Assembly: GCA_019244185.1 (NCBI GenBank) | Contig: JAFATB010000010.1 | Coordinates: forward strand, 1-64,000 | Length of the DNA stretch: 64,000 nucleotides | Direction of reading: 5' to 3' | Source of the DNA: Acidobacteriota bacterium | GTDB lineage: Bacteria > Acidobacteriota > Thermoanaerobaculia > Gp7-AA8 | In this document: one piece after another, positions 6,880 to 57,902 of the stretch | Numbering within the stretch: position 1 is the stretch's first letter | Layout of the letters: each line of letters opens with the position of its first letter | Made by a program: the position numbers and the translations under genes | The notes under the pieces: model-generated | Told to the model about the DNA's origin: nothing | What the model saw: the letters and a program-made list of their open reading frames with translations, nothing else | The model's database searches: none

Positions 6880-6894
6880 TGAGAGCCGGCCACG

Positions 6895-7290
6895 TCAGTG
6901 GCCCTCTTCCTTTTCGATGTACTCCTCGTACTCTTCCGCGTTCATCAGCTCGTCGAGCTCGGTCGGGTCGCTCATGCGGATGCGGATCATCCAGCCGTCG
7001 CCGTACGGGTCGGTGTTGACGAGGGCGGGGTTGTCGTTGAGCGCTTCGTTGATCTCGACGACTTCACCGCTGACGGGCGCGAAGAGCTCGGAGACGGCCT
7101 TCACGGATTCGATGCTGCCCAGTTCTTCGTTCGCGTCGAGCTGCGTGCCGACCTGCGGGAGCTCGACGAAGACGACGTCGCCGAGCTGCGCCTGCGCGTA
7201 GTCGGTGATGCCGATCGTCGCGACGTCGCTTTCGGCGTGCGCATACTCGTGGCTTTTCGCGTACTTGTTGTCTTCAGGGATCGACGACAT
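6895..7290 (-). CDS. gcvH: Glycine cleavage system H protein
   Basis: GITDYAQAQLGDVVFVELP, ESVKAVSE lipoyl-Lys, DPYGDGW. Confidence 0.97.
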   Translation of the reverse strand: MSSIPEDNKYAKSHEYAHAESDVATIGITDYAQAQLGDVVFVELPQVGTQLDANEELGSIESVKAVSELFAPVSGEVVEINEALNDNPALVNTDPYGDGWMIRIRMSDPTELDELMNAEEYEEYIEKEEGH

Positions 7291-7300
7291 GAAGGTCCCC

Positions 7301-8392
7301 CTACTTTGCGCGTTTGTAGAACGGCGTTGGAATGACTCGGGCCCGCGTTTCTTTGCCGCGGATCAGGACGGTGAATTCGGTGCCCTGGGCCGACTGGTCG
7401 AGCGGAAGATATGCGAGACCGATCGCTTTTTTCAACGTCGGCGAATGCGTGCCGCTGGTGACGACGCCGACTTCCTCGGAGCCGTTCACGATCGGGTAGC
7501 CGTGGCGCGCGATGCCGCGGTCGACCATCTCGAATCCGACGAGCTTCCGCCGCGGTCCTTCCGCCTTCTCGCGTTCGAGGACGTCGCGTCCGGCGAAGTC
7601 GCCTTTCTCGATCTTCACGATCCAGCCGAGGTCGGCCTCGATCGGCGTCGTGGTGTGATCGATGTCGTTGCCGTAGAGCGCCATCTTCGCCTCGAGGCGC
7701 AGCGTGTCGCGCGCGCCGAGGCCGCACGGTTTGACGCCGGCGTCGACGAGCTTCTGCAGGAGTCGCGGCGCGTGCTCCGGCGCGAGGTAGACCTCGAAAC
7801 CGTCTTCGCCGGTGTAGCCGGTGCGCGAGACGATGGCCGGCGCGCCGTCGACGTTGCCCTGCGCGAAGCGGTAGTACTTGATCGACGCGAGCGGAACGTC
7901 CGTCAGCGACTGCAGCACGCGCTCGGCGTCGGGACCCTGCACGGCGAGCTGCGCGTACTGCGTGCTGACGTTGTTGACCTCGACGTCGAACGACTTCGCC
8001 TGCTCGGCGAGCCACTCGTAGTCCTTGTCCGTGTTCGACGCATTGACGACGACGAAGTAGTCGTCGTTGGCGATGCGATAGATGAGGATGTCGTCGACGA
8101 AGCCGCCGGTCGGATAGAGCAGGCCGTTGTAATGCGCGCGGCCGTCTTCGAGCTTCGCGACGTCGTTGCACGTCGAGCGTTGCAGGAGCTCCAGCGCCTG
8201 CGGGCCGCGCACGGTGAGCTCGCCCATGTGCGAGACGTCGAAGACGCCGCCGCGCGTGCGCACGGCTTCGTGCTCGTCGAGGATCCCGCTGTACTGCACG
8301 GGCAACTCCCAGCCGCCGAAGTCGACCATCTTCCCGCCGAGGGACTTGTGCAGCTCGTTGAGCGGAGTTTTCTTCAGCGTCTCGTCGGCCAT
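7301..8392 (-). CDS. gcvT: Glycine cleavage system aminomethyltransferase T
   Basis: FDVSHMG, SRTGYTGEDGFE, GLGARDTLRLEA. Confidence 0.97.
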   Translation of the reverse strand: MADETLKKTPLNELHKSLGGKMVDFGGWELPVQYSGILDEHEAVRTRGGVFDVSHMGELTVRGPQALELLQRSTCNDVAKLEDGRAHYNGLLYPTGGFVDDILIYRIANDDYFVVVNASNTDKDYEWLAEQAKSFDVEVNNVSTQYAQLAVQGPDAERVLQSLTDVPLASIKYYRFAQGNVDGAPAIVSRTGYTGEDGFEVYLAPEHAPRLLQKLVDAGVKPCGLGARDTLRLEAKMALYGNDIDHTTTPIEADLGWIVKIEKGDFAGRDVLEREKAEGPRRKLVGFEMVDRGIARHGYPIVNGSEEVGVVTSGTHSPTLKKAIGLAYLPLDQSAQGTEFTVLIRGKETRARVIPTPFYKRAK

Positions 8393-8427
8393 GGCGGCGC
8401 AACGCTAACACATTAGAATCGTTCGCG

Positions 8428-9330
8428 GTGACCAACGAGATCGGCTCTTTCCTCGACTACCTGACGTACGAGCGGAACGTCTCGCCGAACACGATTTCCG
8501 CGTATCGCGACGATCTCGAATCGTTCGTCTCCTTCCTCTGCAACGACTACTTCACGATGGGCCGCGATCAGCTCGACTTAGGCCGCGTCGATCACCTGAC
8601 CGTCCGCTCGTATCTCGCGCATCTCGCGCGCCGCAAGCTCGCGCGGACGTCGATCGCGCGCCACCTCTCCGCGCTGCGCTCGTTCTTCAAGTTCCTCGTG
8701 CGCGACGGCAGCGTCGCCGCGAATCCCGCGCGCGCCGTCGCGACGCCGAAGAAGGAGAAGCATCTGCCCGTGGTCATGCAGCCGTCCGACGTCGCGCTGC
8801 TGCTCGAACAGCCGGACGCGTCGATGCCCCTCGGCGCGCGCGACGCGGCATACCTCGAGCTGCTCTACGCGTCCGGTCTGCGCATCAGCGAGCTGACCGG
8901 CATCGACATCGACGATCTCGAACTGCGCGCGCGTCTGGTGAAGGTGCACGGCAAAGGCTCGAAAGAGCGCATCGTTCCGTTCGGCACGAAGGCGGAAGCG
9001 GCGCTGCGCGCGTGGCTCGCCGTGCGCGGCGATCTCGTGCACGATCCGGAAGAGCAGGCCGTGTTCGTCAACTATCGCGGCCAGCGCATCACCACGCGCA
9101 GCGTGCGTCGGCTCTTCGACGGCTACGTCCGCGCGGCCGCATTGCAGAGCGGCGTCTCGCCGCACACGCTGCGGCATTCGTTCGCGACGCATCTCCTGAA
9201 CGCCGGCGCCGACCTGCGCGGAATTCAGGAACTGCTCGGGCACTCGTCGCTGTCGACGACCCAGAAGTACACGCATCTCAACGACTGGCAGTTGATGGCT
9301 GTTTACAAGAAGGCACATCCGCGCGCCTGA
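8428..9330 (+). CDS. xerC: Tyrosine recombinase XerC
   Basis: LYASGLRISEL, GKGSKER, HTLRHSFATHLL, LLGH..LSTTQKY catalytic residues; 300 aa, no mobile-element context. Confidence 0.88.
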   Translation: MTNEIGSFLDYLTYERNVSPNTISAYRDDLESFVSFLCNDYFTMGRDQLDLGRVDHLTVRSYLAHLARRKLARTSIARHLSALRSFFKFLVRDGSVAANPARAVATPKKEKHLPVVMQPSDVALLLEQPDASMPLGARDAAYLELLYASGLRISELTGIDIDDLELRARLVKVHGKGSKERIVPFGTKAEAALRAWLAVRGDLVHDPEEQAVFVNYRGQRITTRSVRRLFDGYVRAAALQSGVSPHTLRHSFATHLLNAGADLRGIQELLGHSSLSTTQKYTHLNDWQLMAVYKKAHPRA

Positions 9331-9353
9331 CTCGCGGCCATAGAATCGAGCGC

Positions 9354-11192
9354 GTGATCCGCGCGATCGTCCACCACGGCTTCCTCGGCGAAGCGATCGA
9401 ATACTTCGCCGTCGTCGTCGGTCCGGACGTCGACCGCCGCTTCTTCTTCGAGCAGATCAAGTCCGCGCGCGGCGACGTCGTGCGCTACTTCGGCGGCAAC
9501 TCGGAGATCGTCCTCAATCCCGAGGGCGTGCGCTTTCGCGGGAACGGCGGCATGTTCGGCGAGTACATGTTCGGCGGGCATCTCCCCGTCGGCGATCTGC
9601 TCAACGAGGAAGTCGTCAACCGCCTCGTTCTCTTCGGCACGACCATCGATCCGCGCTCGCACGAGCTGCGCTTCACGCCGAACACGGAAGGCTTCGAGCG
9701 GTGGGAGAACCTCTTCCTGCAGGGCAACGCCGTCGCGAATCATTTCTTCTTCGTCGACGACCGCAAGCGTCTGCCCGACGTCGGCGACCGTCAGGAGAAG
9801 ACGCTCAAGAGCACGGGCAAGCTGCTCAAGCGCTCGCGCAAAGTCGGCGCGGGGCAGTTCCTCGCGCTCGCGCACGAGATGCTCGACGCGCTCGGCGAGC
9901 CGGAGACGACGCTGGTCATCGTGCGCGTCGTGCATCGCGCCAATCAGCGGCTCGCGGAGCTGTGCCGCAATGCATACGCGGCGTCGCAGTCGCTCGACGA
10001 CGTTGCGAGCGCGCTCGCCGACGAGGCCATCGAGCCGTATCAGCGCGAGCGCATCCAGATCGACGTCATCTATCACCATCGCGACAACCAGGAGCTCATC
10101 GACGAGTACAAACGCATCCTCGCGTCGTGCGCCGGCTCGACCATCGACTCGTCGGCGCGGGCGCGGCTCATGCGCCTGCGCACGCTCTCGCTGCGCAACG
10201 AAGTGCCGCTCTCGATCTTCGACACGCTCGAAGAGATCGTGTTGCAGGAGCCGCGCGCGGTCGTTCGGAAAGAAGACGAGGCCGATTACATCCAGTCCAC
10301 GCGCGAGATCCTCGGCGGCTTCCTCCTCGGTCGCAACATCACCCGCAAGCTCTCCTCGCTCGATCTCGTGCAGCTGATGGAGAACAAGCAGCGCGCCGCC
10401 GCGATGCGCGACCAGACGTTCGAGGAGGTGCTGCTCGAGACCGGCCGCCTCATCGACGAGATCGGCCGCGAGGAAGAGGATTACGAACGCCTCGAATCGT
10501 TCGGCGAGCTGGTGACGCTCTTCGACCGCATCGATCACACCACGACGCTGGTCAACAAGCTCGCCTTCATGGACGACGTCGAGCTGTCGCCCGAACAGGT
10601 GCGGTCGCTGCTCGGCAACATGCAGGTCTTCGAGAAGCTGCGTCGCGGCCTCTTTCAGCAGCTCTTCATCGATCCGGTCGTGAACAACGAGTACGCGCTC
10701 GCCTACGGCAAGAAGAAGCTCTACGCGCTGACGCTCGGCCTGATCTCGATCGAGAACAACGAGGAGTCGATCGCCGGCGTGGTCGACGCGATCGTCTCGA
10801 TCAACCGCCACGAGCGCGCGTACTTTGCCGCGTACAACCTCGCGCGCCGGCGCATGGCGAACTTCTATCTCGAGCTCAACACCGCCGAAGGACGCGAGAC
10901 GTTCCGCCGCGAGATCCGCGCCGAGATCACGCACGATCCCGCGCTGCGCGACCTGCACGACTTCATCAACGAGTCGCTGCTCGAGGAAGTGATCACGAAG
11001 ATCCGCCTCGAGGCCTTCTACATCAACCAGCTGCTGCCGCGCATCGTCGAAGAGCACGATCCGAAGCTGCGCAACGACTTCCTGTCGAACTCCGGTCTCG
11101 ATCGCTTCCAGGTCGAAGAGCTCGAGCGCGAGTACTTCGAGATGCGCGCGTTCCCGCCGCAGCTGCTCGATGTGATCCAGCGGCCCGCGTAG
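9354..11192 (+). CDS. Conserved hypothetical protein resembling the TIGR04442 family
   Basis: GTG start after a TAGAAT box; N-terminal GVRFRGNGGMFGEYMFG...NRLVLFG recalled as TIGR04442-like; mostly helical, ~612 aa. Confidence 0.6.
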   Translation: MIRAIVHHGFLGEAIEYFAVVVGPDVDRRFFFEQIKSARGDVVRYFGGNSEIVLNPEGVRFRGNGGMFGEYMFGGHLPVGDLLNEEVVNRLVLFGTTIDPRSHELRFTPNTEGFERWENLFLQGNAVANHFFFVDDRKRLPDVGDRQEKTLKSTGKLLKRSRKVGAGQFLALAHEMLDALGEPETTLVIVRVVHRANQRLAELCRNAYAASQSLDDVASALADEAIEPYQRERIQIDVIYHHRDNQELIDEYKRILASCAGSTIDSSARARLMRLRTLSLRNEVPLSIFDTLEEIVLQEPRAVVRKEDEADYIQSTREILGGFLLGRNITRKLSSLDLVQLMENKQRAAAMRDQTFEEVLLETGRLIDEIGREEEDYERLESFGELVTLFDRIDHTTTLVNKLAFMDDVELSPEQVRSLLGNMQVFEKLRRGLFQQLFIDPVVNNEYALAYGKKKLYALTLGLISIENNEESIAGVVDAIVSINRHERAYFAAYNLARRRMANFYLELNTAEGRETFRREIRAEITHDPALRDLHDFINESLLEEVITKIRLEAFYINQLLPRIVEEHDPKLRNDFLSNSGLDRFQVEELEREYFEMRAFPPQLLDVIQRPA

Positions 11193-11293
11193 AGCGCGCC
11201 GCTCCGCTGCATCCAGCGACCCGTTCGCTGCACGCGCCGCCTGTTGACTGCAAAAGGCAACGCCGCACGCGCGGAGCGCCGCATCGTCTGCGC

Positions 11294-12211
11294 ATGCGAA
11301 ACGCCCTCCTCGCCTTCGTTCTGCTGCTCGTCGCCGGCGTCGCCGCGGCCGCCACGCCGCGCGACGCGCTGCTCGTCGACACCGCCTGGCTCAAACAACA
11401 TCTGCACGATCGCAACCTCGTGCTACTGCAGGTCGGCGACCAGGCGAGCTTCGACGCCGGCCACATCGCCGGCGCGCGCGGCATCACGCTGAAAGACGTC
11501 TCGGCCGGCGACGGCAACGGAAACGCGCTCTCGCTGGAGATGCCGAATGCCGCGGAGCTGCGCGAGAAGCTCGAGGCGCTCGGCATCTCCGACGACTCGC
11601 GCGTCATCGTGCTGTTCGGCACCGACTGGGTCACGCCGTCGACGCGCGTGCTCTTCACGCTGCAGTACGCCGGCCTCGGCGCGCGCGCGTCGCTGCTCGA
11701 CGGCGGCCTTCCCGCGTGGGTGCGCGCCGGCGGTGCGGTGACGAAGGCGCCGACGCCCGCGAAACGCGGCAAGCTCGCGCCGCTCGCGCTGCAGCCGATC
11801 GTCGTCGACGCCGCGACCGTGCGCGCGCGCCTCGGCACGCCCGGCTACGCGATCGTCGACGGCCGCGCGGCCGCGTTCTATGACGGCGTCGATCACGGCA
11901 TGAACCGCGACGGCAGCATGCATCGGCCCGGACACGTCCACGGCGCGCACAGCATTCCGTTCACCAGCATCGCCAACGACGACCTCATGGTGAAGTCGAC
12001 CGCCGAGCTGCGCGCGCTCTTCGACCGCGCCGGCGTCAAACCGCACGACACCGTGATCGGCTACTGCCACGTCGGCATGCAGACCACGGCCATGCTGCTC
12101 GCCGCGCGCATCCTCGATCATCCCGTGCTGCTCTACGACGGCTCGTTTCAGGACTGGTCGGGCCACGCGGATTACCCCGTCGACAACCCGAGCGAAGGCA
12201 GCGCGAAATGA
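11294..12211 (+). CDS. Exported tandem-domain rhodanese/sulfurtransferase
   Basis: Signal peptide MRNALLAFVLLLVAGVAAAA; GHIAGA, LLDGGLPAW, active-site YCHVGMQT, LYDGSFQDW. Confidence 0.9.
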   Translation: MRNALLAFVLLLVAGVAAAATPRDALLVDTAWLKQHLHDRNLVLLQVGDQASFDAGHIAGARGITLKDVSAGDGNGNALSLEMPNAAELREKLEALGISDDSRVIVLFGTDWVTPSTRVLFTLQYAGLGARASLLDGGLPAWVRAGGAVTKAPTPAKRGKLAPLALQPIVVDAATVRARLGTPGYAIVDGRAAAFYDGVDHGMNRDGSMHRPGHVHGAHSIPFTSIANDDLMVKSTAELRALFDRAGVKPHDTVIGYCHVGMQTTAMLLAARILDHPVLLYDGSFQDWSGHADYPVDNPSEGSAK

Positions 12212-12783
12212 GCGGCGCGCCGCTCGCGGCCGACGACGTGCGTGAGGTGGATCGCGCTGCGTCGTCGCACGTGCAAGTGACGCGCGCGTACGCCGATCCA
12301 TACGTCGCCGGCGTCGCGCTCGGACTCGTGCTCCTCGCCGCCTTCGTCGTGATGGGCCGTGGCCTCGGCGCGTCCGGCGCCTTCGCATCGAGCGCCGCGG
12401 GAGTCGTTTCCGCGATCGCGCCGCGACGCGCCGCGACGAACGAGTACTTTGCGCGCTATCTCGCCGGCGACGGTCCGTGGCGCGACTGGCTGCTGTTCGA
12501 GTTGATCGGCGTGATCCTCGGCGGCTTTTTCCCGAGCATCCTTGCCGGCCGCTTCCGCTTCGAGATCGCGCGCGGCCCGCGCCTCGCGCGCACACCGCGA
12601 CTCGCGCTCGCCCTCGCCGGCGGCGCGCTGATGGGCACCGGCGCCGTCCTCGCGCGCGGCTGCACGAGCGGCCTCGCCCTCACCGGCGGCGCGCTGCTCT
12701 CGGTCGGCAGCTGGCTCTTCATCGCCGTCGCGTTCGCGAGCGCGTTCGCCGTCGCGCCGCTCGTGCGGAAGGCGTGGCGATGA
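12208..12783 (+). CDS. YeeE/YedE family sulfur-compound transporter subunit
   Basis: Hydrophobic; PYVAGVALG, GRGLGASG, ARGCTSG conserved Cys motif. Confidence 0.85.
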   Translation: MSGAPLAADDVREVDRAASSHVQVTRAYADPYVAGVALGLVLLAAFVVMGRGLGASGAFASSAAGVVSAIAPRRAATNEYFARYLAGDGPWRDWLLFELIGVILGGFFPSILAGRFRFEIARGPRLARTPRLALALAGGALMGTGAVLARGCTSGLALTGGALLSVGSWLFIAVAFASAFAVAPLVRKAWR

Positions 12784-13361
12784 CCGCGCCGCTCGTCGAC
12801 TTCGCCGCCTTTAGCGCCGCGTCGCAACTCGCCATCGCCGTCTTCATCGGCCTCGCCTTTGGCTTCGCGCTCGAACGCGCCGGCCTCGGCGACGCGCGCA
12901 AGCTCGCGGGCCAGTTCTATGTCACCGACTTCACCGTCCTGAAAGTGATGTTCAGCGCGATCGTGACGGCGATGCTCGGCGCGTACTGGCTGGCGCGTCT
13001 CGGCGTCCTCGACCTCGCGCGCGTGTTCGTGCCGGAGACGTACGTCCTGCCGCAGCTCGCCGGCGGCGCGCTCTTCGGCATCGGCTTCGTGCTGGCCGGA
13101 CTCTGTCCCGGCACCTCGTGTGTCGCCGCCGCGACCGGCCGCGGCGACGGCGCGCTGACCGTCGTCGGCATGTTCGCGGGCGTCCTCGCCACCGGCCTCG
13201 CGTTCGCACCGCTGCGCGCGTTCTACGCGAGCACCGCGCGCGGCAGCCTCACGTTGCCGCAACTGCTCGACCTGCCGTACGGCGTCGTCGTCTGCGCGAT
13301 CGTCGCGATCGCGCTCGCCGTCTTCCGCATCGTCGAACGCTGGGAGCGACGCGCGGCATGA
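12780..13361 (+). CDS. YeeE/YedE family sulfur-compound transporter subunit 2
   Basis: GFALERAG, DFTVLKVMFSAI, GLCPGT Cys motif; ATGA overlap. Confidence 0.85.
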   Translation: MTAPLVDFAAFSAASQLAIAVFIGLAFGFALERAGLGDARKLAGQFYVTDFTVLKVMFSAIVTAMLGAYWLARLGVLDLARVFVPETYVLPQLAGGALFGIGFVLAGLCPGTSCVAAATGRGDGALTVVGMFAGVLATGLAFAPLRAFYASTARGSLTLPQLLDLPYGVVVCAIVAIALAVFRIVERWERRAA

Positions 13362-13903
13362 ATCGGACGCTCGCGATCGCGGCTCTCGTCCTCGGTGCGC
13401 TCGCCGCGATCGGCGGCAGTCCGTATCGCGCCCAGCACGCGAACGTCGACGCCGCGCGCCTCGCGCGCGCGATCGCGCACGAGGACGATCACGTGACCGC
13501 ACTCGAACTCGCGGAGTGGATCCGCGATCGCAAGCCGCGCCTGCGCATCATCGATCTCCGCTCCGAACGCGAGTTCGCGACGTATCACCTGCCGCGCGCC
13601 GAGCGCGTGCCGATCGAAGCAATTCCGTCGACGCCGTTCGCGCGCGACGAAACGCTCGTCCTGATCTCCGACGGCGGCGCGCATGCGGCGCAGGCGTGGG
13701 TGCTCCTGCAGTCGCTCGGCTACCGCGACGTCTACTTCCTCCGCGGCGGCCTCGGCGAATGGCTGGACGACGTGATGTCGCCGGCGAAGCCGAGCGATCT
13801 CACGCGCTACTTCGGCGGCGTTCCGCGCGCGACCGGCGACGAAGCGGCCTACGGTGGCGGCACGAGCGCCGCCGTGAAGGCGATGCGGAGACGCGGATGT
13901 TGA
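13358..13903 (+). CDS. Membrane-anchored rhodanese-like protein lacking the catalytic Cys, ending in Gly-Cys
   Basis: N-terminal hydrophobic segment; IIDLR..EF..YHLPRA, YFLRGGLGEW; active-site loop ISDGG; C-terminus RRRGC*. Confidence 0.8.
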   Translation: MNRTLAIAALVLGALAAIGGSPYRAQHANVDAARLARAIAHEDDHVTALELAEWIRDRKPRLRIIDLRSEREFATYHLPRAERVPIEAIPSTPFARDETLVLISDGGAHAAQAWVLLQSLGYRDVYFLRGGLGEWLDDVMSPAKPSDLTRYFGGVPRATGDEAAYGGGTSAAVKAMRRRGC

Positions 13904-15219
13904 CGCTCGCGGTCGACACGCGTTCGCGCGATGCCGCGTTCTTCGCCGGCCTGCGCGCCCGCGAGTTCGCGCGGCTCGACGCGCAGCGGCTCGCGTATCT
14001 CGACTACACCGGCAGCGCGCTGTACGCGGAGTCGCAGCTCTACGCGCATCACGCACTGCTGCGGAGAGGCATCTTCGGCAACCCGCACTCCGACTCCGCG
14101 CCGTCGCGCGCGAGCACGGACGTCATCGATGCGGCGCGGCGCCGCGTGCTGCGGCACTTCGACGTCGACGAGCGCACGCACGCCGTCATCTTCACCGCGA
14201 ACACCAGCGCGGCCGTGAAGCTCGTCGCCGAGAGCTATCCGTTCGATGCGTCGACGTCGCTCGTGCTGTCGTCCGACAACCACAACTCCGTCCTCGGCAT
14301 CCGCGAGTACGCCGCGCGCGCCGGCGCCGCCGTGCACGCCATCGCGCTCGACGAAGAGCTGCGCCTGCGCGACGCACGCGCGACGCTCGCGGCTGCGAAG
14401 CGCGGCCTCTTCGCGTTCCCCGCGCAGTCGAATTTCTCCGGCGTGCGTCATCCGCTGGCACTCGTGAGCGACGCGCATCGTCTCGGCTTCGACGTGCTGC
14501 TCGACGCCGCCGCGTACGTGCCGAGCCACGCGCTCAGCCTTCGCGACGTGCCGGCGGATTTCACGGCGCTGTCGTTCTACAAACTCTTCGGCTATCCGAC
14601 CGGCCTCGGCGCGCTCATCGCGCGGCGCGACGCGCTCGCGAAACTGCGCCGCCCGTGGTTCGCCGGCGGCACGGTGCTCTTCGCGTCCGTCGCCGCGAAC
14701 ACGCATCGGCTGCGTCCCGGTCACGAGGCGTTCGAAGACGGCACGCCCGACTTTCTCAACATCGCCGCGCTCGATGCCGGCTTCGATCTGCTCGACGGCG
14801 CCGGGATGCCGCGCATCGCCGTGCACGTCGCGCATCTCACCGAACTGCTGCTCGATGGTCTGCTCGCGTTGCACAACGTTCGCGTGTATGGCCCGCGCGA
14901 TCTCACTGCGCGCGGCGGCACCATCGCGTTCAACATCCGCGGCGTGCCGTACTGGGACGTCGAAGCGTACGCGCGCGAGCGCGGCGTGGCCCTGCGCGGC
15001 GGCTGCTTCTGCAATCCCGGCGCATCCGAGGCGGCGTTTGGAATCGAAACGTCGCGCTTGCGCGGTTGCCTCGAAACGCTCGGCGCCGACTTCACTCCGC
15101 AGCGACTGGCCGCGTGCGCCGGCACCGTCGTCGGCGCCGTTCGTGCGTCGCTCGGACTGGCGAACAACGAAGCCGACGTCGCGCGCGCGCTCGACGTCAT
15201 CGCCTCGCTGTCGCGCTGA
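13897..15219 (+). CDS. Class V PLP enzyme, molybdenum-cofactor-sulfurase-like cysteine desulfurase
   Basis: YLDYTG, GNPHS, DNHNSV, LLDAA, SFYKLFGYPTGLG (PLP Lys), FEDGT, RGGCFCNPG. Confidence 0.87.
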   Translation: MLTLAVDTRSRDAAFFAGLRAREFARLDAQRLAYLDYTGSALYAESQLYAHHALLRRGIFGNPHSDSAPSRASTDVIDAARRRVLRHFDVDERTHAVIFTANTSAAVKLVAESYPFDASTSLVLSSDNHNSVLGIREYAARAGAAVHAIALDEELRLRDARATLAAAKRGLFAFPAQSNFSGVRHPLALVSDAHRLGFDVLLDAAAYVPSHALSLRDVPADFTALSFYKLFGYPTGLGALIARRDALAKLRRPWFAGGTVLFASVAANTHRLRPGHEAFEDGTPDFLNIAALDAGFDLLDGAGMPRIAVHVAHLTELLLDGLLALHNVRVYGPRDLTARGGTIAFNIRGVPYWDVEAYARERGVALRGGCFCNPGASEAAFGIETSRLRGCLETLGADFTPQRLAACAGTVVGAVRASLGLANNEADVARALDVIASLSR

Positions 15220-15289
15220 CGACGCTTCCGGCACGCGGCCGCTACGCGCGTACAAGACGGCGGGTCGCATCGCGGCTACGCTGGTCGCC

Positions 15290-15919
15290 ATGAAACGACT
15301 GCTCGGCTCCGTTGTGTTTCTGCTGCTGCTTCCGCTGATCGCCACCGCCGCGCCGGCGCCGCAGGATGCGATCGGCACGATCGCATCGCTGTTCACGAAG
15401 TACGACGTCGTCGGCATCCCCGAAGTGCATCGCATGGCCGAGACCCACGTCTTCCTGCGGCAGCTCGTCAGCGATCCGCGCATCACCCGCGTGATCGACG
15501 ACGTCGTGGTGGAGTCGGGCAACGCGCGTTATCAGGAGGTCATGGACCGCTACATCATGGGTGCGGACGTGCCGCTGGCGGAGGTCGAGCCGGCGTGGCG
15601 CGACACCACGATGTTCCTCGTGTGGGACTCGCCGTTGTACCGGCAATTGTTCGAGACCATCCGCAACGTCAACACCACGTTGCCGCGCGCGCATCGCATC
15701 CGCGTGCTCCTCGGCGACCCGCCCATTCCGTGGGAGCAGGTGAAGACCCGCGCGGATTACGAACGCTTCGCCGATCGCGACTTCTCGTATGCCGAGGTGG
15801 TGGATCGCGAGGTGTTCGCCAAACATCACAAGGCGCTGCTCATCGCGGGCGCGATGCACGTGTACGGCATGAGCTTCATCGGCGACCTGGACGACGCGCT
15901 CCGCTGCACGTCGCACTGA
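15290..15919 (+). CDS. Secreted hypothetical protein, EreA/ChaN-like fold, possibly truncated
   Basis: Signal peptide; VVGIPEVH, VVVESG, LLIAGAMH motifs; stops shortly after the last motif. Confidence 0.55.
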   Translation: MKRLLGSVVFLLLLPLIATAAPAPQDAIGTIASLFTKYDVVGIPEVHRMAETHVFLRQLVSDPRITRVIDDVVVESGNARYQEVMDRYIMGADVPLAEVEPAWRDTTMFLVWDSPLYRQLFETIRNVNTTLPRAHRIRVLLGDPPIPWEQVKTRADYERFADRDFSYAEVVDREVFAKHHKALLIAGAMHVYGMSFIGDLDDALRCTSH

Positions 15920-15936
15920 CGCTATGCTGTCGTCCG

Positions 15937-16697
15937 ATGAACGCCATCACCGCGGGCGAGGTGAGCCGGCAGATGACGGCGGGCGATTTTCGCGTCCACA
16001 TCACGCATCATCGCGCCGGCACCGGTCTCCGCCGCCACGATCATGAAGCGGCGTCGCTGCAACTCGTGCTCGGCGGAGGGTTCGAGGAGACGATCGGCTC
16101 CCGCACGTACGACTGCGAAGCCTCCTCGCTCATCTTCAAGCCTGCCGGCGCGCATCATGCCGACCGCTACACGGTGGCCGTCGATGCGGTTCTGATCGAA
16201 CTGCCGCACGCGCCGCACGCGGCGCTGGGTGAGATCGTCGTCCGCCGCGATCGCCGCTGCGTCGACGTCGCGCGTCGCATCGTCGCGAGCTCGATGGCTT
16301 CGCCGCTGGAGCTCGAATCGGAGATCGTCCGCGCGCTTTCGCTCGTCGAACCCGTCCCGTGTGCGCGCGAGCGCAGGCCGGCGTGGCTCGACGACGCGGT
16401 CGACCTCGCCCGCGGAGGCGCCTCGCTCTCGCAGATCGCCGCCGGCGTCGGCCGCCACCGCACGCACGTGGCACGCGCGTTCCGCGAGGCGTTCGGCGTC
16501 TCGGCCGGCGCGTTCGTGCGCGACGAACGGCTGCAGAGCGCGGCGCATCACTTGCGCTTCACCAAACGCGCGCTCCGCGACGTCGCCGCCGAGCACGGCT
16601 TCTTCGACCAGAGCCATTTCACGCGTGCATTCCGCGCGCGCTTCGGCGTCAGTCCCGCGGAGTACCGCGCGGGCATGAACTCTGCGCGGCGATTCGC

Positions 16698-16701
<4 letters not shown>
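15937..16701 (+). CDS. AraC family transcriptional regulator
   Basis: Cupin HDH N-terminus; C-terminal HTH with [29 protein letters not shown]. Confidence 0.88.
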
Positions 16702-18698
<1,997 letters not shown>

Positions 18699-18705
18699 CG
18701 CGAAC

Positions 18706-20928
18706 TCACCTCGTCACCATCTTCCGAAACTCCGTCCCCCGCGTGATCCGCTCCACCAGTTTCTCGCGCCGCTCGCCGGGGCCGGGGGCACGGTCGAGCA
18801 GCGCGTGGAAGACCTCGTTCACGAACGTCGCGTCGTCGATGCATTCGCTGCCGTAGTCGAGCGTGTGCACGAGGTCGTCGAGGTGCACGTCGCCGCGCGC
18901 GATGCGGGGCCAGACGGTCACCGGGTCGTAGCCGAGGCGGGCGATGAGAGCCATGACCGCATCGCGGCGCAGGCGGGCGGGCGCGAAGCGGGTGGACGAG
19001 TCGCGCCAGAGCGCGCGCTCGTCGAGGAGCGGCGTCGTGGTCATGCGAACGGCCGGGAGGTGGGCGGGGTGGGTGGCGGGAGGGGCGCCGCGGTCATCGA
19101 TGGATATCCAAGCAAAGGACGCGGCGAGCGGGCGTCGGTCGGAGGCGTGCGGATCGATGGCCGCCGGCGCGGTCGCGCGAGCGAAGTCGAAGGTCAACAC
19201 GTTGACTCCGTCGCGCCAAACGCGTGCGGGAGCGTTGACGGCGTAGTCGCGCCAGGCGTTGGACATCGGCGTTGTATCCGCGAGCGGCGTGCCGTTGACG
19301 GACACGCGCAGCGTCTGCGGCGGCAGCGACGGATGCGACATCGGCAGCGCGCTGAAGCGGATGACGCGATCTCGCGCGAACCAGCGCGGCACGCCGATCG
19401 TAGCGCGCGTGGCGATGGCCCAGCGGAACGCGCCGTCGCCTGCGCCTTCAGCCGCGGCCCAGCCGTCGCGGAAGAGCGGGTCTTCGGTCGTGGCGAGGCG
19501 GATGCTCCGCGCGCCGATGCCGAGGGCGAAGGCGCGGCGTTCGGCGTCGGTGGCGCGCTCGGCGAGGTAGTCTTCGCGGGCGTAGTGCAGCCGGAAGTTC
19601 TCGAGCGGCGAGGCGAGGAGCAGAGGATAGCTGCACATCCAGTTGCGCGTGGTCGTGTCGTCCGAGAAGCCCGCCGTGACGAGGAACGTGGCGGGATAGT
19701 GGTCGACGAGCCCGCGCGCGATGTCGAGGATCGACATCTGCCGCAGATCGGCCTTCCGTGGCAGGCGTTCGAGGTAGAAGCGCAGCGACACTTCCGACCA
19801 CGGCTCCGCGGTGAGCACGAGATCGCCGGGATGCGCGCGCTGATGGATCGCGGCGGCGATGCCGCGCCAGTCGAGCTTCTGAAACGCCTCGGTTCGCGCG
19901 GCGTGCCACGTCTGCGTGAGGAAGGCGGCGACGATCGCGGCAGCGAGGAGCGGCGCGAAGCGGCGTGCGACGAGACGCGCGAACGCGGCGACGCCGATGC
20001 CGGCGAGCACGAGGTAGCCGGTCAGCGCCGGCGTCACGTAACGCGTCGCGTAGAAGTGTTCGAACGCGCGGAGCGATGCGAGCGCGAGCGCGAGCGGCAG
20101 CAGCGTCATGCCGATCGTGACAGCGGCCAGCGTCCGGTCGCGCTGCAGGAGCGCAATCGCTCCCGCGGCGGCGAAGCAGAGCAGCGCGACCGCCGTGCGT
20201 CCGCTGCCGGTGCCGAGCGCGGAGACGGAGAAGTTGTGCAGCAGCGCCGTGAAGAACGCCGCGTCGAGGTGCGGAAAGCCCGGCCAGCCCGCGTCTTCGA
20301 CGGGCGTTGCCGCGTAGAGCAGCGGCAGGAGCGCGATCGCGAGGAACGAGGCGATCGCGGCGATCGTGAAGAAGCGGCGACGCGCCTTGTCGAGCAGCGC
20401 CGCAACACTCGCCACGACGAACGCCGAAACGAGCACCGGCGCCGCCGTCGCGGACGTGTACAACGTCAACAACACGACGGCGACAACCAGCCACGGCGAG
20501 CGGCCGCGCAGCAGCACCGCCAGCAACGCCGCGGTCGCAAACATTAGGAGCGCGTACGCGCGCGCCTCGCGGCTGTAATAGACGTGCAGCGGCGAGGCGG
20601 CGAGCAGCAAGGCGGCAGTGGCGGCGGCGAGCTCGTCGAACGAGCGCGCGGCGAGCCACACCAGCGCGATGGCGGCGATGCCGAACAGCGCCGGCGCGAG
20701 GCGTCCCGCGGTCTCGTCGCGCGCGACCAGTCGGGCGGCGAGCTGCGTCGCGTAGTACAGCGGCCCGTGCTCGGGCGAGAAGCCGGTCAGCCAGCGCCAC
20801 CACGGCTGCTGCAGCGCGGCGGTGGTGAGGTCGTGGTGCAGGATCTCGTCGAGCCAGTAACTCGGCTCGCCGAGGTGATCGAGGCGGAGGAACGCGCCGA
20901 GGAGCAGCGCCGCGGCAAGCAGCAGCAT
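18706..20928 (-). CDS. GT-C membrane glycosyltransferase (ArnT/PMT-like, GT39/83) with periplasmic C-terminal domain
   Basis: SYWLDE, HGPLYY, SPLHVYYSREARAY; multiple TM segments. Confidence 0.8.
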   Translation of the reverse strand: MLLLAAALLLGAFLRLDHLGEPSYWLDEILHHDLTTAALQQPWWRWLTGFSPEHGPLYYATQLAARLVARDETAGRLAPALFGIAAIALVWLAARSFDELAAATAALLLAASPLHVYYSREARAYALLMFATAALLAVLLRGRSPWLVVAVVLLTLYTSATAAPVLVSAFVVASVAALLDKARRRFFTIAAIASFLAIALLPLLYAATPVEDAGWPGFPHLDAAFFTALLHNFSVSALGTGSGRTAVALLCFAAAGAIALLQRDRTLAAVTIGMTLLPLALALASLRAFEHFYATRYVTPALTGYLVLAGIGVAAFARLVARRFAPLLAAAIVAAFLTQTWHAARTEAFQKLDWRGIAAAIHQRAHPGDLVLTAEPWSEVSLRFYLERLPRKADLRQMSILDIARGLVDHYPATFLVTAGFSDDTTTRNWMCSYPLLLASPLENFRLHYAREDYLAERATDAERRAFALGIGARSIRLATTEDPLFRDGWAAAEGAGDGAFRWAIATRATIGVPRWFARDRVIRFSALPMSHPSLPPQTLRVSVNGTPLADTTPMSNAWRDYAVNAPARVWRDGVNVLTFDFARATAPAAIDPHASDRRPLAASFAWISIDDRGAPPATHPAHLPAVRMTTTPLLDERALWRDSSTRFAPARLRRDAVMALIARLGYDPVTVWPRIARGDVHLDDLVHTLDYGSECIDDATFVNEVFHALLDRAPGPGERREKLVERITRGTEFRKMVTR

Positions 20929-27396: not shown

Positions 27397-27572
27397 CGGA
27401 AGACGACGAGAGCGCCTCCGGCGGGCCGGCACGGCCGGCAGCGCTAAGGGCCTAGCCTAGACGCACGCGAGGTCGCACTGATCGCGCAAACAGCAGCCGC
27501 ACGTGCGTACTGGCTAAGCCCTTAGCGCTGCCGGCCGCGCCGGCCCGCCGGAGGCGCTCCCGTCGTCTTCCG
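27397..27572. repeat. 61-bp inverted repeat formed by two copies of a dispersed palindromic element
   Basis: 27397-27457 matches the reverse complement of 27512-27572 with 3 mismatches; lies between convergent genes. Confidence 0.9.
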
Positions 27573-35543: not shown

Positions 35544-35567
35544 GCGCATTCGCGGCGAACACGTTCA

Positions 35568-35680
35568 GTGCAGCCGCACGTGCGGATAGGCTCGGCCCTT
35601 AGCGCAGCCGGCCGGGCCGGCCGTACGTGCGGATAGGCTTGGCCTTTAGCGCCGCCGGCCGCGCCGGCCGGCCGGGCCGG
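35568..35680. repeat. Two tandem partial copies of the dispersed palindromic element
   Basis: gtgcagccgcacgtgcggataggctcggcccttagcgcagccggcc... then acgtgcggataggcttggcctttagcgccgccggccgcgccggcc. Confidence 0.8.
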
Positions 35681-53340: not shown

Positions 53341-53383
53341 AAGCGCCTTTCCAAACGCGCGAGGCCGGAAAATAATCCGCTGC

Positions 53384-54157
53384 ATGGATCTCGGGCTCGC
53401 AGGGAGAGTCGCTCTCGTCACCGGCGCGAGCCGCGGCATCGGCAAGGCCATCGCGGAAGTGCTCAGCAGCGAGGGGATGCGCGTCGTCGTGGTGGCGCGC
53501 TCGGCGGACGCGCTCGCGCGCGTCGCGCAGTCGCTCGCGACGGAAGCGCACGCGATCGCGGCCGACCTGCGCGCGCCGCAGGCGCCGGACGACGTCGTCG
53601 AGCGCGCGGTCGAGCGCTTCGGCGCGCTCGATCTGCTCGTCAACAACGCCGGCGCGACGCAGCGCGGCGATTTTCTCGAGCTCACGGACGAGCTGTGGCA
53701 GGACGGCTTCGCGCTGAAGTTCTACGGCGCGATGCGCGCGTGCCGCGCGGCGTGGCCGCATCTGCGCGCCAGCGGCGGCGCGATCGTGAACATCGCCGGG
53801 ATGGGCGGGCGGACGGGCAGCGCGGAGTTCGCCATCGGCGGCGCGGTGAACGCGGCGCTGATGAATCTGACGAAGGTGCTCGCCGACCGCGGCGTGAAGG
53901 AAGGCGTGCGTGTGAATGCCGTCAACCCCGGCTCGACCGCGACCGAGCGCCTGCAGACGCGCATCCGCAAGCTGGCCGCCGAGCAGCAGCTCGACGAAGA
54001 AGAGGCCGCGCGCCGCATGGCGCAGGCCCTCGGCGTGGCGCGCTTCGGAAAGCCGGAGGAGATTGCGCGCGTGGTCGCGTTCCTGGCGTCGCCGCGCGCG
54101 GCGTATTGCCAGGGGGCGGTGGTGGATGTGGATGGTGGGCAGACACGTACGCTTTGA
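53384..54157 (+). CDS. Short-chain dehydrogenase/reductase
   Basis: TGASRGIG, LVNNAG, VNAVNPG, VDGG. Confidence 0.9.
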   Translation: MDLGLAGRVALVTGASRGIGKAIAEVLSSEGMRVVVVARSADALARVAQSLATEAHAIAADLRAPQAPDDVVERAVERFGALDLLVNNAGATQRGDFLELTDELWQDGFALKFYGAMRACRAAWPHLRASGGAIVNIAGMGGRTGSAEFAIGGAVNAALMNLTKVLADRGVKEGVRVNAVNPGSTATERLQTRIRKLAAEQQLDEEEAARRMAQALGVARFGKPEEIARVVAFLASPRAAYCQGAVVDVDGGQTRTL

Positions 54158-54188
54158 GCCGCCGCCGCGCCGCTAGAATCCCTCGTTC

Positions 54189-55345
54189 GTGCCCGTCCGC
54201 TCCTTCTCCTTCCTCCGCTCCCTTCCCGACGCCCCCGATCCCTTCGCGCTGCGCGTGACGCAGCTGCGCGACGGCAATCCGAACGGACGCTACGTGCTCT
54301 ATCACGCGCGGGCGGCGCGGCGGCTGCGGAGCAATCTCGCGCTGGAGTTCGCGCAGTCGTTCGGACTGCCGGTCGTCGTCGCGGAGTGGCTCGACGAGCC
54401 GCATCTCTCGCCGCGCATCGAGGCGTATCTCCGCAACATGCGGCGCGCGGAAGCGCTGACGTCGACTATCGCTTCGAGCCCGAACGCGAGCCGCTCGTCC
54501 GCAACGCGCGCTATGTCGTCACCGACGAGTTCCCGACGCTCCCCGCGCCGCCGCACGCGACGCATCTCGTCGACGGCAACGGCATCCTGCCGATGCGCGC
54601 GCTGGAAAAGGAGCAGTACTCGGCGAAGTTCTTTCGCGATCGCGCGTTCCGCCTCTTCGAGCGCTTCTGGCGGCGCGCCGAGCCGGCGGACCTATCGCTC
54701 GACTTCCTCGACGGCTACGCGGAGCTCCGCAACAAGTCGCCGCGCCACGTGAGCAACCTCTCGCCCGCGCTGCACTTCGGCCATCGCGGCATCCACGAGA
54801 TCGTCGCCGCGATCCTCGCCAGCGATGCACGCGACGAGGACGTCGACGCGTTTCTCGAGGAAGCGATCATCCGCCGCGAGCTCTCGTTCAATCTCTGCTT
54901 CTTCAATCCGCGCTACGCCTCGCTCGACGCGCTCCCCGCATGGGCGAAGCAGACGCTCGACAAGCACCGCCGCGATCGCCGCAAGCCGTGCTACTCGTAC
55001 GACGAGCTCGCGCGCGCCGCGACGCACGACGAGGTGTGGAACCTCGCCCAACGCCAGCTCCTCGACACCGGCACGATCCACGGTTACCTGCGCATGCTGT
55101 GGGGCAAGAAGATCATCGAGTGGAGCGAGACGCCCGAAGACGCCCACGCGACGATGCTCCGCTTCCACGATCTGCACGCGCTCGACGGCCGCGATCCGAA
55201 CACGCACGCCGGCATCCTCTGGTGCTTCGGCAAGCACGATCGCCCGTGGGCGCCGGAGCGGCCGATCTTCGGCACGATCCGTTGGATGTCGTCGGAGCAG
55301 ACGGCGAAGAAGGTGCGGCTGCATGAGTTTGCCGGCGCGACGTAA
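54189..55345 (+). pseudogene. Class II CPD photolyase, compact, with an apparent frameshift near 54450
   Basis: N-terminal YVLY..R..NLALEFA in the 54189 frame; SNLSP.LHFG, FLEEAIIRREL, HGYLRMLWGKKI, LDGRDPN, HDRPW.PERPIFG in the 54386 frame. Confidence 0.8.
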
Positions 55346-55396
55346 AGGCAAAACCGACTGTTCGGCGCCGCTGGTCTCGCGCATCATCGCGCGACC

Positions 55397-55762
55397 ATGG
55401 AACAGACACTCCAGCAACTCGAAGCGATCGGCCTCATGTCGGAAACGGAGCTCGACGCGCTGCCGTTCGGCGCCATCCGCCTCGACGCCACCGGCACCGT
55501 TCTCAGCTACAACGCCGCGGAATCGAAGCTCACCGGACGCGATCCGAAGCGCGTCATCGGCCGCAATTTCTTTACCGAGGTCGCGCCATGCACCAACGTG
55601 CAGTCGTTCGCCGGCCGCTTCCGCGAAGGCGTGAGCAAAGGCGAGCTGCACGCGATCTTTCCCTATCGCTTCGACTTCAAGATGGCGCCGCGCGATGTGA
55701 CCGTGACGCTGTTCTGGTCGAGGCAGACGTCGACGGCGTGGGTGTTCGTGCGGGAGACGTAA
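55397..55762 (+). CDS. pyp: Photoactive yellow protein homologue
   Basis: LDALPFGAIRLD, YNAAE (Y42/E46), TGRDP (T50/R52), NFFTEVAPCT (C69), FDFKM (F96/M100), WVFV. Confidence 0.88.
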   Translation: MEQTLQQLEAIGLMSETELDALPFGAIRLDATGTVLSYNAAESKLTGRDPKRVIGRNFFTEVAPCTNVQSFAGRFREGVSKGELHAIFPYRFDFKMAPRDVTVTLFWSRQTSTAWVFVRET

Positions 55763-55763
55763 C

Positions 55764-55835
55764 CGGGAGCGCCTCCGGCGGGCCGGCGCGGCCGCCTGCG
55801 CTGAGGGCCTAGCCGATCCGCACGTGCGGCTGCAC
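55764..55835. repeat. Full copy of the dispersed palindromic element
   Basis: cgggagcgcctccggcgggccggcgcggccgcctgcgctgagggcctagccgatccgcacgtgcggctgcac matches the 27.4-27.6 kb and 35.6 kb copies. Confidence 0.85.
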
Positions 55836-56740: not shown

Positions 56741-56786
56741 CGGCGCCAGTGGCTCACCACTTGCTCCCGTGACGCGCGGGGGCAGC

Positions 56787-57902
56787 ATGAAAAAGTACAT
56801 CGACGTCTTCAAACAGACGTTCACGGAGTTCAGCCAGGACAAGGCTCCCCGGCTCGGCGCGGCGCTCGCGTACTACACGATTTTTTCCATCGGTCCGCTT
56901 CTGCTCATTGCCGTCGCGATGGCAGGACTCTTCCTCGGACAGGAAGCGGCGCACGGCCAGATCTCGGGCGAGCTCGGCCGCTTCTTCGGGCCGCAGATGG
57001 CGAAGTCGCTCGAGGACATGATCCAGGCGGCCTCGAAGCCGAAGTCCGGCACGCTCGCCACCATCGTCGGCTTCGTGACGCTCATCCTCGGCGCCTCCGG
57101 CGTCTTCGGCCAGCTCAAAGACGCGCTCAACACGATCTGGAACGTCGAGCCGAAGAAAGCCGGCGGCATCATGGGCTTCATCAAGGAGCGCTTCCTCTCG
57201 ATGGCCATGGTGCTCGGCATCGGCTTCCTGCTCCTCGTCACGCTGCTCCTCGACACGATCATCGCGGCGATGGGGAAGTTCATGGAAGGACGCCTGCCCG
57301 GCGGCGAGGCCGTGCTGCAGGCGATTCAGCTCGTGCTGTCGTTCGGCATCGCGGTCGTGCTCTTCGCCGCGATCTTCCGCGTGCTGCCCGACCTGCGCAT
57401 CGCGTGGCACGACGTCTGGTTCGGCGCCGTCTTCACCGCGATCCTCTTCGTCCTCGGCAAGTTCGGGCTCGGCCTCTATCTCGGCAAAGCGGCGGTCGGC
57501 TCCGCGTACGGCGCGGCCGGCTCGCTGGTCATCCTGCTCGTGTGGGTGTACTGGTCGGCGCAGATCCTCTTCTTCGGCGCGGAGTTCACGCAGGTGTACG
57601 CGCGCACGTTCGGCAGCCTCAAAGGCGACGACTCGAAACGCAAGGCGCGCGCGCAGGCGGACAAGCCCGAAGACCGCAAGAAAGCGGAGACGACGCCGGA
57701 AGGCAAGCCGCTGCCGCTCGGCGCGCCGCGGCCCGCGTACGCAAAGTCCCCGACGAACGCGAAGAAATCCGGCGGCGGCGGCGCGTTGAAGATGGTGCTC
57801 GGTGGCGTCGCGGGCTTGCTCTTCGGCGCGATCGTCGGCGGCGTCAGCGCGGTCGTGTTCGTGCTCAAGTCGCTGCGGAAGGTGTTCATCCCGTTCAAGT
57901 AG
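56787..57902 (+). CDS. YihY/BrkB family membrane protein
   Basis: GAALAYYTIFS, ALNTIW, YGAAGSLVILLVWVYWSAQI.FFGAEF. Confidence 0.92.
   Translation: MKKYIDVFKQTFTEFSQDKAPRLGAALAYYTIFSIGPLLLIAVAMAGLFLGQEAAHGQISGELGRFFGPQMAKSLEDMIQAASKPKSGTLATIVGFVTLILGASGVFGQLKDALNTIWNVEPKKAGGIMGFIKERFLSMAMVLGIGFLLLVTLLLDTIIAAMGKFMEGRLPGGEAVLQAIQLVLSFGIAVVLFAAIFRVLPDLRIAWHDVWFGAVFTAILFVLGKFGLGLYLGKAAVGSAYGAAGSLVILLVWVYWSAQILFFGAEFTQVYARTFGSLKGDDSKRKARAQADKPEDRKKAETTPEGKPLPLGAPRPAYAKSPTNAKKSGGGGALKMVLGGVAGLLFGAIVGGVSAVVFVLKSLRKVFIPFK

Follow-up and report, generated by a model that had tools for sequence, protein, structure and literature searches.

In photoactive yellow protein (PYP), the residues Y42, E46, T50, R52, F96 and M100 (Halorhodospira halophila numbering) make up the hydrogen-bond partners and the pocket of the chromophore. 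A functional PYP is defined by Cys69, which carries the thioester link (Xing et al. 2022, PMC9664959). The genes for tyrosine ammonia-lyase (tal) and p-coumaroyl-CoA ligase (pCL, gene pcl) lie near only about 10% and about 30%, respectively, of the pyp genes (PMC9664959). The association of PYP with GGDEF and EAL genes and a role in biofilms are established ideas (PMC12826048, PMC9664959), and 22 EAL and 29 GGDEF pyp operons are given in the text of one survey (PMC12826048). The signaling targets of stand-alone PYPs are a long-standing gap. In the present study, we analyzed a stand-alone PYP gene and the class II photolyase-like gene (hereafter, the PHR gene) directly upstream of it, which are located in a 64,000-nt stretch of DNA (positions 1 to 64,000 of contig JAFATB010000010.1, assembly GCA_019244185.1; hereafter, the window).

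The original prediction for this pair, made from the sequence of the window, was a light-response module in which PYP is a blue-light sensor or an antenna or partner for DNA photorepair. The reading favored here, to which we assign a probability of about 0.5, is different: the PYP would still be a blue-light sensor, loaded with scavenged p-coumarate and acting on an EAL-type phosphodiesterase for cyclic di-GMP (c-di-GMP) encoded elsewhere, and it would share a light-related transcription unit with the photolyase-like gene without binding the PHR protein. By its sequence, the window PYP is bona fide but orphaned: it lacks dedicated chromophore enzymes and stands behind a freshly broken PHR gene.

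The G+C content of the window is about 67%, and the names of the closest database proteins point to Thermoanaerobaculia in the phylum Acidobacteriota. The genome assembly (5.3 Mb) is 98.9% complete, and genome-wide absences are therefore given as "not found". Sixty-one related genomes (G numbers; G002 and G024 are unpublished) were compared for the PYP and PHR genes, and the survey across phyla covered the best 80 of at least 570 confirmed PYP loci from many phyla.

The PYP protein and its chromophore supply

The window PYP (coordinates in Table 1) exceeds the cut-off of the TIGR02373 photo_yellow model by a thin margin (144.9 bits versus 143.05; 144.0 bits in the whole-genome scan). It aligns without gaps to the solved H. 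halophila PYP chains (E = 3e-34), and its residue n corresponds to residue n + 4 of the latter. The residues Y38, E42, T46, R48, C65, F92 and M96 are the counterparts of Y42, E46, T50, R52, C69, F96 and M100, and all of them are kept. The original description of a 121-aa PYP with these seven residues is thus borne out by both the model cut-off and the alignment. The Cys69 column was invariant in two sets of aligned PYPs (13/13 and 30/30). Homologues are numerous (746 proteins at E ≤ 1e-5), and public pipelines already label the close ones "photoactive yellow protein". The identity is 76–82% to the PYP1 of the 11 best-matching relatives and reaches 85% to metagenome homologues. The window gene was the sole PYP gene found in a scan of the assembly. 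On these grounds, the window PYP can be regarded as a genuine, ordinary member of its family.

The absence of tal, pcl and an output domain from the window, which had also been noted originally, was confirmed: a Pfam scan of 58 window proteins (7 + 51) found no aromatic lyase, AMP-dependent ligase, GGDEF, EAL or histidine kinase family. In the genome, the best score for the PYP-type p-coumaroyl-CoA ligase model TIGR02372 was 55 bits (cut-off, 335), and tblastn searches with five pCLs from pyp operons of other phyla retrieved generic adenylate-forming enzymes (best, 25% identity over 336 residues, E = 1e-7). The sole aromatic ammonia-lyase (PF00221) is of the histidine ammonia-lyase (HAL) type (NF006871, 545 bits, above 524). 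At the specificity residues of aromatic lyases, the lyase of the window genome has Ser-His, where seven PYP-linked tyrosine ammonia-lyases mostly have His-Leu. The urocanase gene hutU is present in the genome alongside this lyase, and the lyase is found in 60 of the 61 relatives irrespective of PYP. Thus, neither a dedicated tal or pcl nor a pyp-pcl-tal operon was found in this genome. The use of scavenged hydroxycinnamate, as originally proposed, is therefore reasonable, nor would it be unusual, given the low rates of nearby tal and pcl in the literature.

As to the HAL-type lyase itself (G000 contig C7:433197-436292; L030:9210-12292), it is marked by several insertions and by a long extension at the C-terminus (571 aa). 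The gene for it overlaps a histidyl-tRNA-synthetase-like gene, and a gene for an EgtD-like histidine-specific methyltransferase is located about 2 kb away.

EAL proteins as the candidate output

A putative output of PYP in this lineage was found in the sister genomes. In G020, G021, G024 and G027, the genes are ordered PHR-PYP1-EAL-PYP2-PYP3-FerMBL, where FerMBL is a ferredoxin plus metallo-beta-lactamase-fold protein; the arrangement is complete, cut by a contig end, or devoid of the PHR gene, and that of G024 is from an unpublished genome. The cassette genes of G021 have 4-nt start/stop overlaps. The PYP1-EAL-PYP2-PYP3 core occurs in 9 of the 80 public PYP loci. The cassette EAL is an EAL-only protein of about 238 aa, and the EAL proteins retain the positions EAL, N, E, DD, K, E and Q, which we take to be the catalytic motifs. 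In G041 and G049, which belong to another family of the class, EAL-PYP fusions are found, in which the EAL part shares 42% identity with the stand-alone EAL.

The same partner predominates among the longer PYP proteins (>212 aa; PYP domain related to that of the window; n = 26). Fifteen of them are EAL-PYP fusions, including the four best matches (53–59% identity), and the others include one MCP-PYP, seven REC-PYP and two kinase-linked forms (one HK-PYP and one phytochrome-kinase form). A photolyase domain was found in none of the 26. Since PYP is placed beside or fused to EAL in the sister genomes, blue-light control of c-di-GMP is implied, and c-di-GMP turnover rather than photorepair can therefore be proposed as the output. 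It is most likely that the ancestral output of these PYPs was an EAL c-di-GMP phosphodiesterase, as far as the comparison of relatives indicates.

In the favored mechanism, scavenged p-coumarate would be activated by a non-dedicated ligase, and the thioester-bound p-coumarate would be isomerized by blue light. The resulting conformational change would be passed by protein contact to an EAL phosphodiesterase encoded elsewhere, and c-di-GMP turnover would set the surface or biofilm behavior.

The paralogous PYPs of the cassettes differ from one another. In L037, L034 and L036, Y42 is replaced by Phe and T50 by Ser in PYP2, and PYP3 carries Ala at the T50 position; all the paralogues share Cys69 and E46. 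These substitutions suggest that the three PYPs around one EAL are sensors differing in color or kinetics. The lineage offers compact pairs for the question of PYP targets: an EAL-only enzyme with three differently tuned PYP paralogues, and two-domain EAL-PYP fusions.

Positional relationship between the PYP and PHR genes

In the genus, the locus has a conserved backbone, in which ffh is divergent and is followed by PHR, FerMBL, BrkB, VTT and transaldolase-PGI genes in this order. PYP, either single or as the PYP1-EAL-PYP2-PYP3 cassette, is a patchy insert at the PHR/FerMBL junction. Six PYP-less genomes (G003, G006, G013, G014, G022, G031) have FerMBL directly after PHR with gaps of about 5–175 nt; G029 has a PYP remnant consisting of residues 86–117 only, and in G007 the PYP lies in two frames. 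On the PHR tree, the loci with no PYP, one PYP, three PYPs, a remnant or a broken gene are interspersed. Starred support was obtained for the pairs G028/G029, G005/G032 and G030/G008, and the window groups with the PYP-less G031 (89/78). PYP would therefore occupy a variable slot between the PHR and FerMBL genes in this Thermoanaerobaculia genus. In the window this slot appears to be reduced, with the PHR gene split by a recent 7-nt deletion and with the EAL gene and the two further PYP paralogues of the sister genomes missing; the window either lost the EAL-PYP2-PYP3 part of the cassette or never had it.

Among the 61 genomes, 11 have both PYP and a PHR-like gene, 18 have a PHR-like gene without PYP, 6 have PYP without a PHR-like gene (G002, G024, G036, G039, G041, G049), and 26 have neither. 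By this distribution, neither gene needs the other.

Across phyla, a class II photolyase-family gene was found within 6 kb of PYP in 10 of the 80 loci, all in Acidobacteriota and in three arrangements. In seven loci (L046, L047, L050, L051, L052, L054, L056), PHR and PYP are co-oriented in this order beside ffh. The other three loci are outside the ffh context: in L064 and L066 the two genes are divergent, and in L073, a Terriglobales contig, PYP precedes PHR (PF00875 match) with a gap of 34 nt. The latter three loci encode canonical Asn-type enzymes (see below). No further photolyase domain was found among the 222 nearest open reading frames (ORFs) of 65 loci (L059–L123). The linkage of phr and pyp, on which the original prediction was to be judged, therefore holds in part: the adjacency is recurrent, and it is patchy, with PHR genes lacking PYP and vice versa. 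By these counts, the PYP-photolyase adjacency is real and recurrent in Acidobacteriota and not obligatory. A published PYP-photolyase link was not found; the word "photolyase" occurs 0 times in the main texts of two recent PYP surveys (PMC9664959, PMC12826048), which leave this adjacency unmentioned, and whose supplements may list such neighbors. A complex prediction for the G021 PHR with its own PYP1 gave a score of 0.00, which counts neither way.

The 51-nt distance between the PHR and PYP genes, read directly from the sequence, was correctly given in the original prediction. In the promoter/terminator scan, which matched consensus sequences, no terminator-like site was found on the + strand, including this spacer. 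One sigma-70-like site was found at 53348-53376, upstream of a short-chain dehydrogenase (SDR) gene; it is a consensus match only, and the promoters of the host may differ. The PHR-PYP spacer is poorly conserved among the relatives. The spacers of L011, L015, L020, L021 and L047 contain a direct repeat, GTAAYC-(about 6 bases)-GTAAYC, just 5′ of PYP, the first copy of which overlaps the upstream stop. The window spacer does not contain it, and has instead a small CCGA...TCGG palindrome at 55353-55366.

The broken PHR gene

The PHR gene of the window is split into two frames (Table 1). At 1157 nt, its span (54189-55345) is not divisible by 3, and past the lesion the upstream frame reads nonsense up to a stop at 54752. 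Both parts share one frame in 7/7 relatives. The N-terminal part is 65–74% identical to that of the intact orthologues of six relatives (L011, L012, L013, L015, L020, L021) and, over 50 residues, 46% identical to the G030 long form (L018); it aligns to the same columns as the members of the family alignment (36 sequences, including 32 short forms). The C-terminal part comprises the last portion of the alpha/beta domain plus the entire domain that binds flavin adenine dinucleotide (FAD). It matches the Methanosarcina mazei class II photolyase with E = 4.6e-58, and it matches the TIGR00591 phr2 model with 262 bits against a cut-off of 550, over model positions 240–450, which are the C-terminal half only.

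The 7-nt loss was reproduced in independent Logan contigs of three runs from three studies (X1, 35x; X2, 105x; X3, 79x). These contigs span 54100-55695 or beyond with 0 differing letters and 0 gaps. Runs X1 and X2 may represent the source sample, and X3 is not flagged so. Because the contigs of three runs reproduce the sequence without differences or gaps, the frameshift is a real DNA lesion and not an assembly slip. It also looks recent, because the two frames together retain all the columns invariant in the family (64/64), the protein departs at only 6 of the 181 columns that are ≥90% conserved (0–17 in the 32 intact members), and its branch on the tree is not long (0.22 versus a median of 0.18). 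Relaxed selection on the N-terminal domain was also considered, and was dropped because the N- and C-terminal parts are similarly conserved among close relatives (64–74% and 68–71%); an erosion of this domain finds support in the indel pattern alone.

A search of the genome for other genes of the cryptochrome/photolyase family (CPF) found none: there was no match to PF03441, and this locus alone matched TIGR00591. Thus, the strain may lack photoreactivation altogether, the broken gene being its sole CPF gene found. The original designation as a class II photolyase stands as regards the family likeness, the C-terminal match and the co-orientation with pyp. It does not stand as regards the enzyme itself, since an intact frame of about 450–480 aa over the whole TIGR00591 model was not found in the window, and since the gene belongs to a short form with a His variant.

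A short subfamily with His at the flavin N5 site

The intact orthologues of the window PHR are about 375–400 aa long. All the 119 other database matches listed are likewise short, and the named ones are labeled Thermoanaerobaculia. In comparison with the 467-aa form of G030 and the M. mazei and rice enzymes, the short forms are missing parts of the alpha/beta domain and the larger share of the interdomain linker. For P0002, the closest intact homologue, a confident AlphaFold model (pLDDT 87.6, pTM 0.86) superposes with both lobes on the M. mazei class II photolyase for cyclobutane pyrimidine dimers (MmCPDII; TMq 0.83 to 2xrz); the bilobal fold was thus found on P0002, not on the window gene.

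In the column of Asn403 of MmCPDII, the N5-proximal Asn of class II enzymes, the window PHR has His, as do all the 32 short forms and the G030 long form (33/36); Asn is found only in L064, L066 and L073. In class II enzymes, Asn403 shows high conservation, and FAD is lost in the N403A and N403L mutants (PMC9649867, citing Kiontke 2011). At the equivalent site, all photolyase classes have Asn, whereas plant cryptochromes have Asp and those of insects have Cys (PMC9356274). The flavin N5 site is thus a position that separates photolyases from cryptochromes. From the above comparison, the window gene can be described as class II photolyase-like, without being filed as a TIGR00591 member. No description of the His variant or of a short class II form was found in the literature searched, and the main texts of the two PYP surveys (PMC9664959, PMC12826048) likewise do not mention this widespread subfamily.

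It is conceivable, though very improbable, that the His-variant ffh-linked proteins have ceased to be mere repair enzymes and are cryptochrome-like flavin photoreceptors or redox proteins with His as the N5 proton donor, and that PYP was recruited three times in Acidobacteriota beside class II PHR genes into one blue/UV-A circuit with EAL and the ferredoxin-MBL protein. An Arg in place of W305 of MmCPDII was considered as a sign of lost lesion binding, and was discarded because the solved rice class II photolyase aligns Arg there too.

Alternative explanations

The adjacency of the two genes may be interpreted as a physical relationship, in which PYP is a partner, regulator or antenna of the photolyase-family protein in a two-chromophore module for photorepair or photosensing. 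This is consistent with the immediate adjacency in three arrangements and contexts, the short PHR-PYP spacers, and the trimmed antenna-type N-terminal domain of the short PHR family. However, the PHR gene is broken in the very genome in question and encodes an atypical short His form, each gene occurs without the other among the 61 genomes (PHR in 18, PYP in 6), PYP was repeatedly lost while PHR persisted, and neither the 26 longer PYP proteins nor the PYP neighborhoods outside Acidobacteriota (among the 222 nearest ORFs of 65 loci) provided a photolyase domain. In addition, the excited state of PYP decays by ultrafast isomerization with very low fluorescence, so that PYP is a poor energy donor. 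Such a partnership is considered quite improbable, and the photorepair role in the original prediction is not upheld. The PHR adjacency most likely reflects a light-related transcription unit in common.

The PYP may instead be a relic on its way out, non-functional in the window strain despite an intact ORF. The decay of the cassette in the genus (the remnant of G029 and the two-frame PYP of G007), its patchiness on the PHR tree, the absence of tal and pcl from the genome, the lack of an adjacent EAL partner, and the fresh upstream frameshift, which could be polar on pyp, agree with this explanation. On the other hand, the ORF is full-length with every pocket residue kept, its identity to the relatives and metagenome homologues is high, and intact loci with a single PYP and no EAL are common (G011, G018, G030, G032, G033, G036). 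Many functional PYPs also lack a nearby tal or pcl (PMC9664959). We consider a relic rather unlikely. Signaling to FerMBL, to the BrkB-like membrane protein or to a receiver, kinase or other non-EAL protein encoded elsewhere seems hardly probable at all: in most loci of the genus, FerMBL does come after the PYP cassette, and REC, MCP and kinase forms do occur among the longer proteins, but the backbone includes FerMBL and BrkB whether or not PYP is there, and the non-EAL fusions show 38–48% identity (one MCP form, 57%), as compared with the 53–59% of the EAL fusions.

Several points weigh against the EAL-directed sensor that we prefer. No EAL gene, and thus neither adjacency nor fusion of PYP with EAL, was found at the window locus. 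The genome has 16 EAL matches, and its best match to the PYP-linked EAL is 38% identical and lies in a 564-codon open frame; a close orthologue of that EAL was not found in the genome. A PYP-EAL contact in this clade would be deduced from the fused and clustered relatives, and co-transcription with PHR from the spacing and the missing terminator-like site; no RNA runs containing the stretch were listed among the sequencing-run matches. The loading of the chromophore without pCL is presumed. Finally, the adjacency in three unrelated contexts exceeds mere synteny and could mean more than co-regulation.

Neighboring genes

The features in and around the module are listed in Table 1.

Table 1. Features of the pyp locus and its surroundings in the window
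Feature	Position	Strand	Evidence
SDR, first + strand gene after the divergent ffh	53390..54157	+	adh_short 7.5e-48, adh_short_C2 3.2e-50
PHR, N-terminal part, 83 codons, frame of 54189	54189..54437	+	orthologue alignment
Frameshift site, net loss of 7 nt	54438..54454		DNA alignment with 9 relatives
PHR, C-terminal part, 296 codons + stop, frame of the 319-aa ORF 54386-55345	54455..55345	+	TIGR00591 match
Spacer of 51 nt, PHR stop to PYP start	55346..55396		TAA 55343-55345, ATG at 55397
PYP, stand-alone, 121 aa	55397..55762	+	TIGR02373, PDB PYP match
Copy of the ~70-nt high-copy intergenic repeat; 3′ edge of the module, not part of it	55763..55833		124 blastn matches in the genome
FerMBL, 289 aa	55871..56740	+	Fer4_13 8.3e-18, Lactamase_B 2.7e-4
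BrkB/YihY-family membrane protein, conserved backbone	56769..57902	+	Virul_fac_BrkB 1.1e-52

The repeat at the 3′ edge is G+C-rich; it is also found at 27410-27562 and 35562-35675 of the window, and its matches in the genome often form nearby inverted pairs. The depth of the Logan contigs over it (bin 55747-55807) was 5,900–19,500, compared with 35–105 in the flanks, and its predicted fold was no better than those of shuffled sequences (z = 0.2).

PHR and FerMBL are close-packed in the PYP-less loci L134, L138, L140, L141, L142 and L143, with the short gaps given above, and the two may work together as a pair of their own.

On the − strand of the window, 2064-3923 encodes a 620-aa protein with an AI-2E family transporter domain and a C-terminal B12-binding domain. 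In G039 (L061:4966-5814), a gene for a CarH/LitR-like regulator (MerR plus B12-binding) is divergent from PYP, and in G036 (L032:10619-11152) a B12-binding ORF adjoins PYP. These neighbors in G039 and G036 hint at light-controlled transcription of pyp loci. Such a regulator was also sought for the window; the G039 protein as query gave no match in the window's genome.

Comparison with known systems

The PHR family shares the fold of MmCPDII (2xry) and the rice enzyme (3umv), and its C-terminal domain is strongly similar to theirs. The counterparts of the electron-transfer Trp residues, M379 and W421 of MmCPDII are kept, according to a numbering that we partly presume. The family differs from class II photolyases in being about 80 residues shorter, owing to deletions in the alpha/beta domain and interdomain linker, in not being recognized by PF03441, in falling far below the TIGR00591 cut-off, and, in the window, in being frameshifted. 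A reduced antenna-type N-terminal domain is also known from short photolyase-like proteins (SPL; Xu et al. 2021, PMC8476157) and from photolyases with a reduced or rearranged N-terminus (PMC7736829). However, SPL and NewPHL are separate CPF clades (PMC8476157, PMC7736829), whereas the window family is a derived class II branch in which a small alpha/beta domain is left.

The window PYP belongs to the same length class as H. halophila PYP (1kou, 2pyp), to which it aligns without gaps and with all seven residues in common; its N-terminus is four residues shorter, and it comes from a soil acidobacterium that is not phototrophic. Among the loci examined, those of gammaproteobacteria and spirochaetes show pyp-pcl(-tal), whereas the window pyp has no pcl or tal adjacent to it or in the genome. 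As in Idiomarina loihiensis, in clade C of Xing et al. (2022, PMC9664959) and in Ppd (PYP-phytochrome-GGDEF/EAL), PYP is placed beside or fused to EAL in the sister genomes; the window itself differs from the PYP-GGDEF/EAL systems in the absence of an EAL gene. The sister loci differ from these systems in having a minimal EAL flanked by three PYPs, or an EAL-PYP fusion with a C-terminal PYP. Both are variations beyond the text of the 2025 survey, where EAL is listed only in PYP-PHY-GGDEF/EAL proteins with an N-terminal PYP (PMC12826048).

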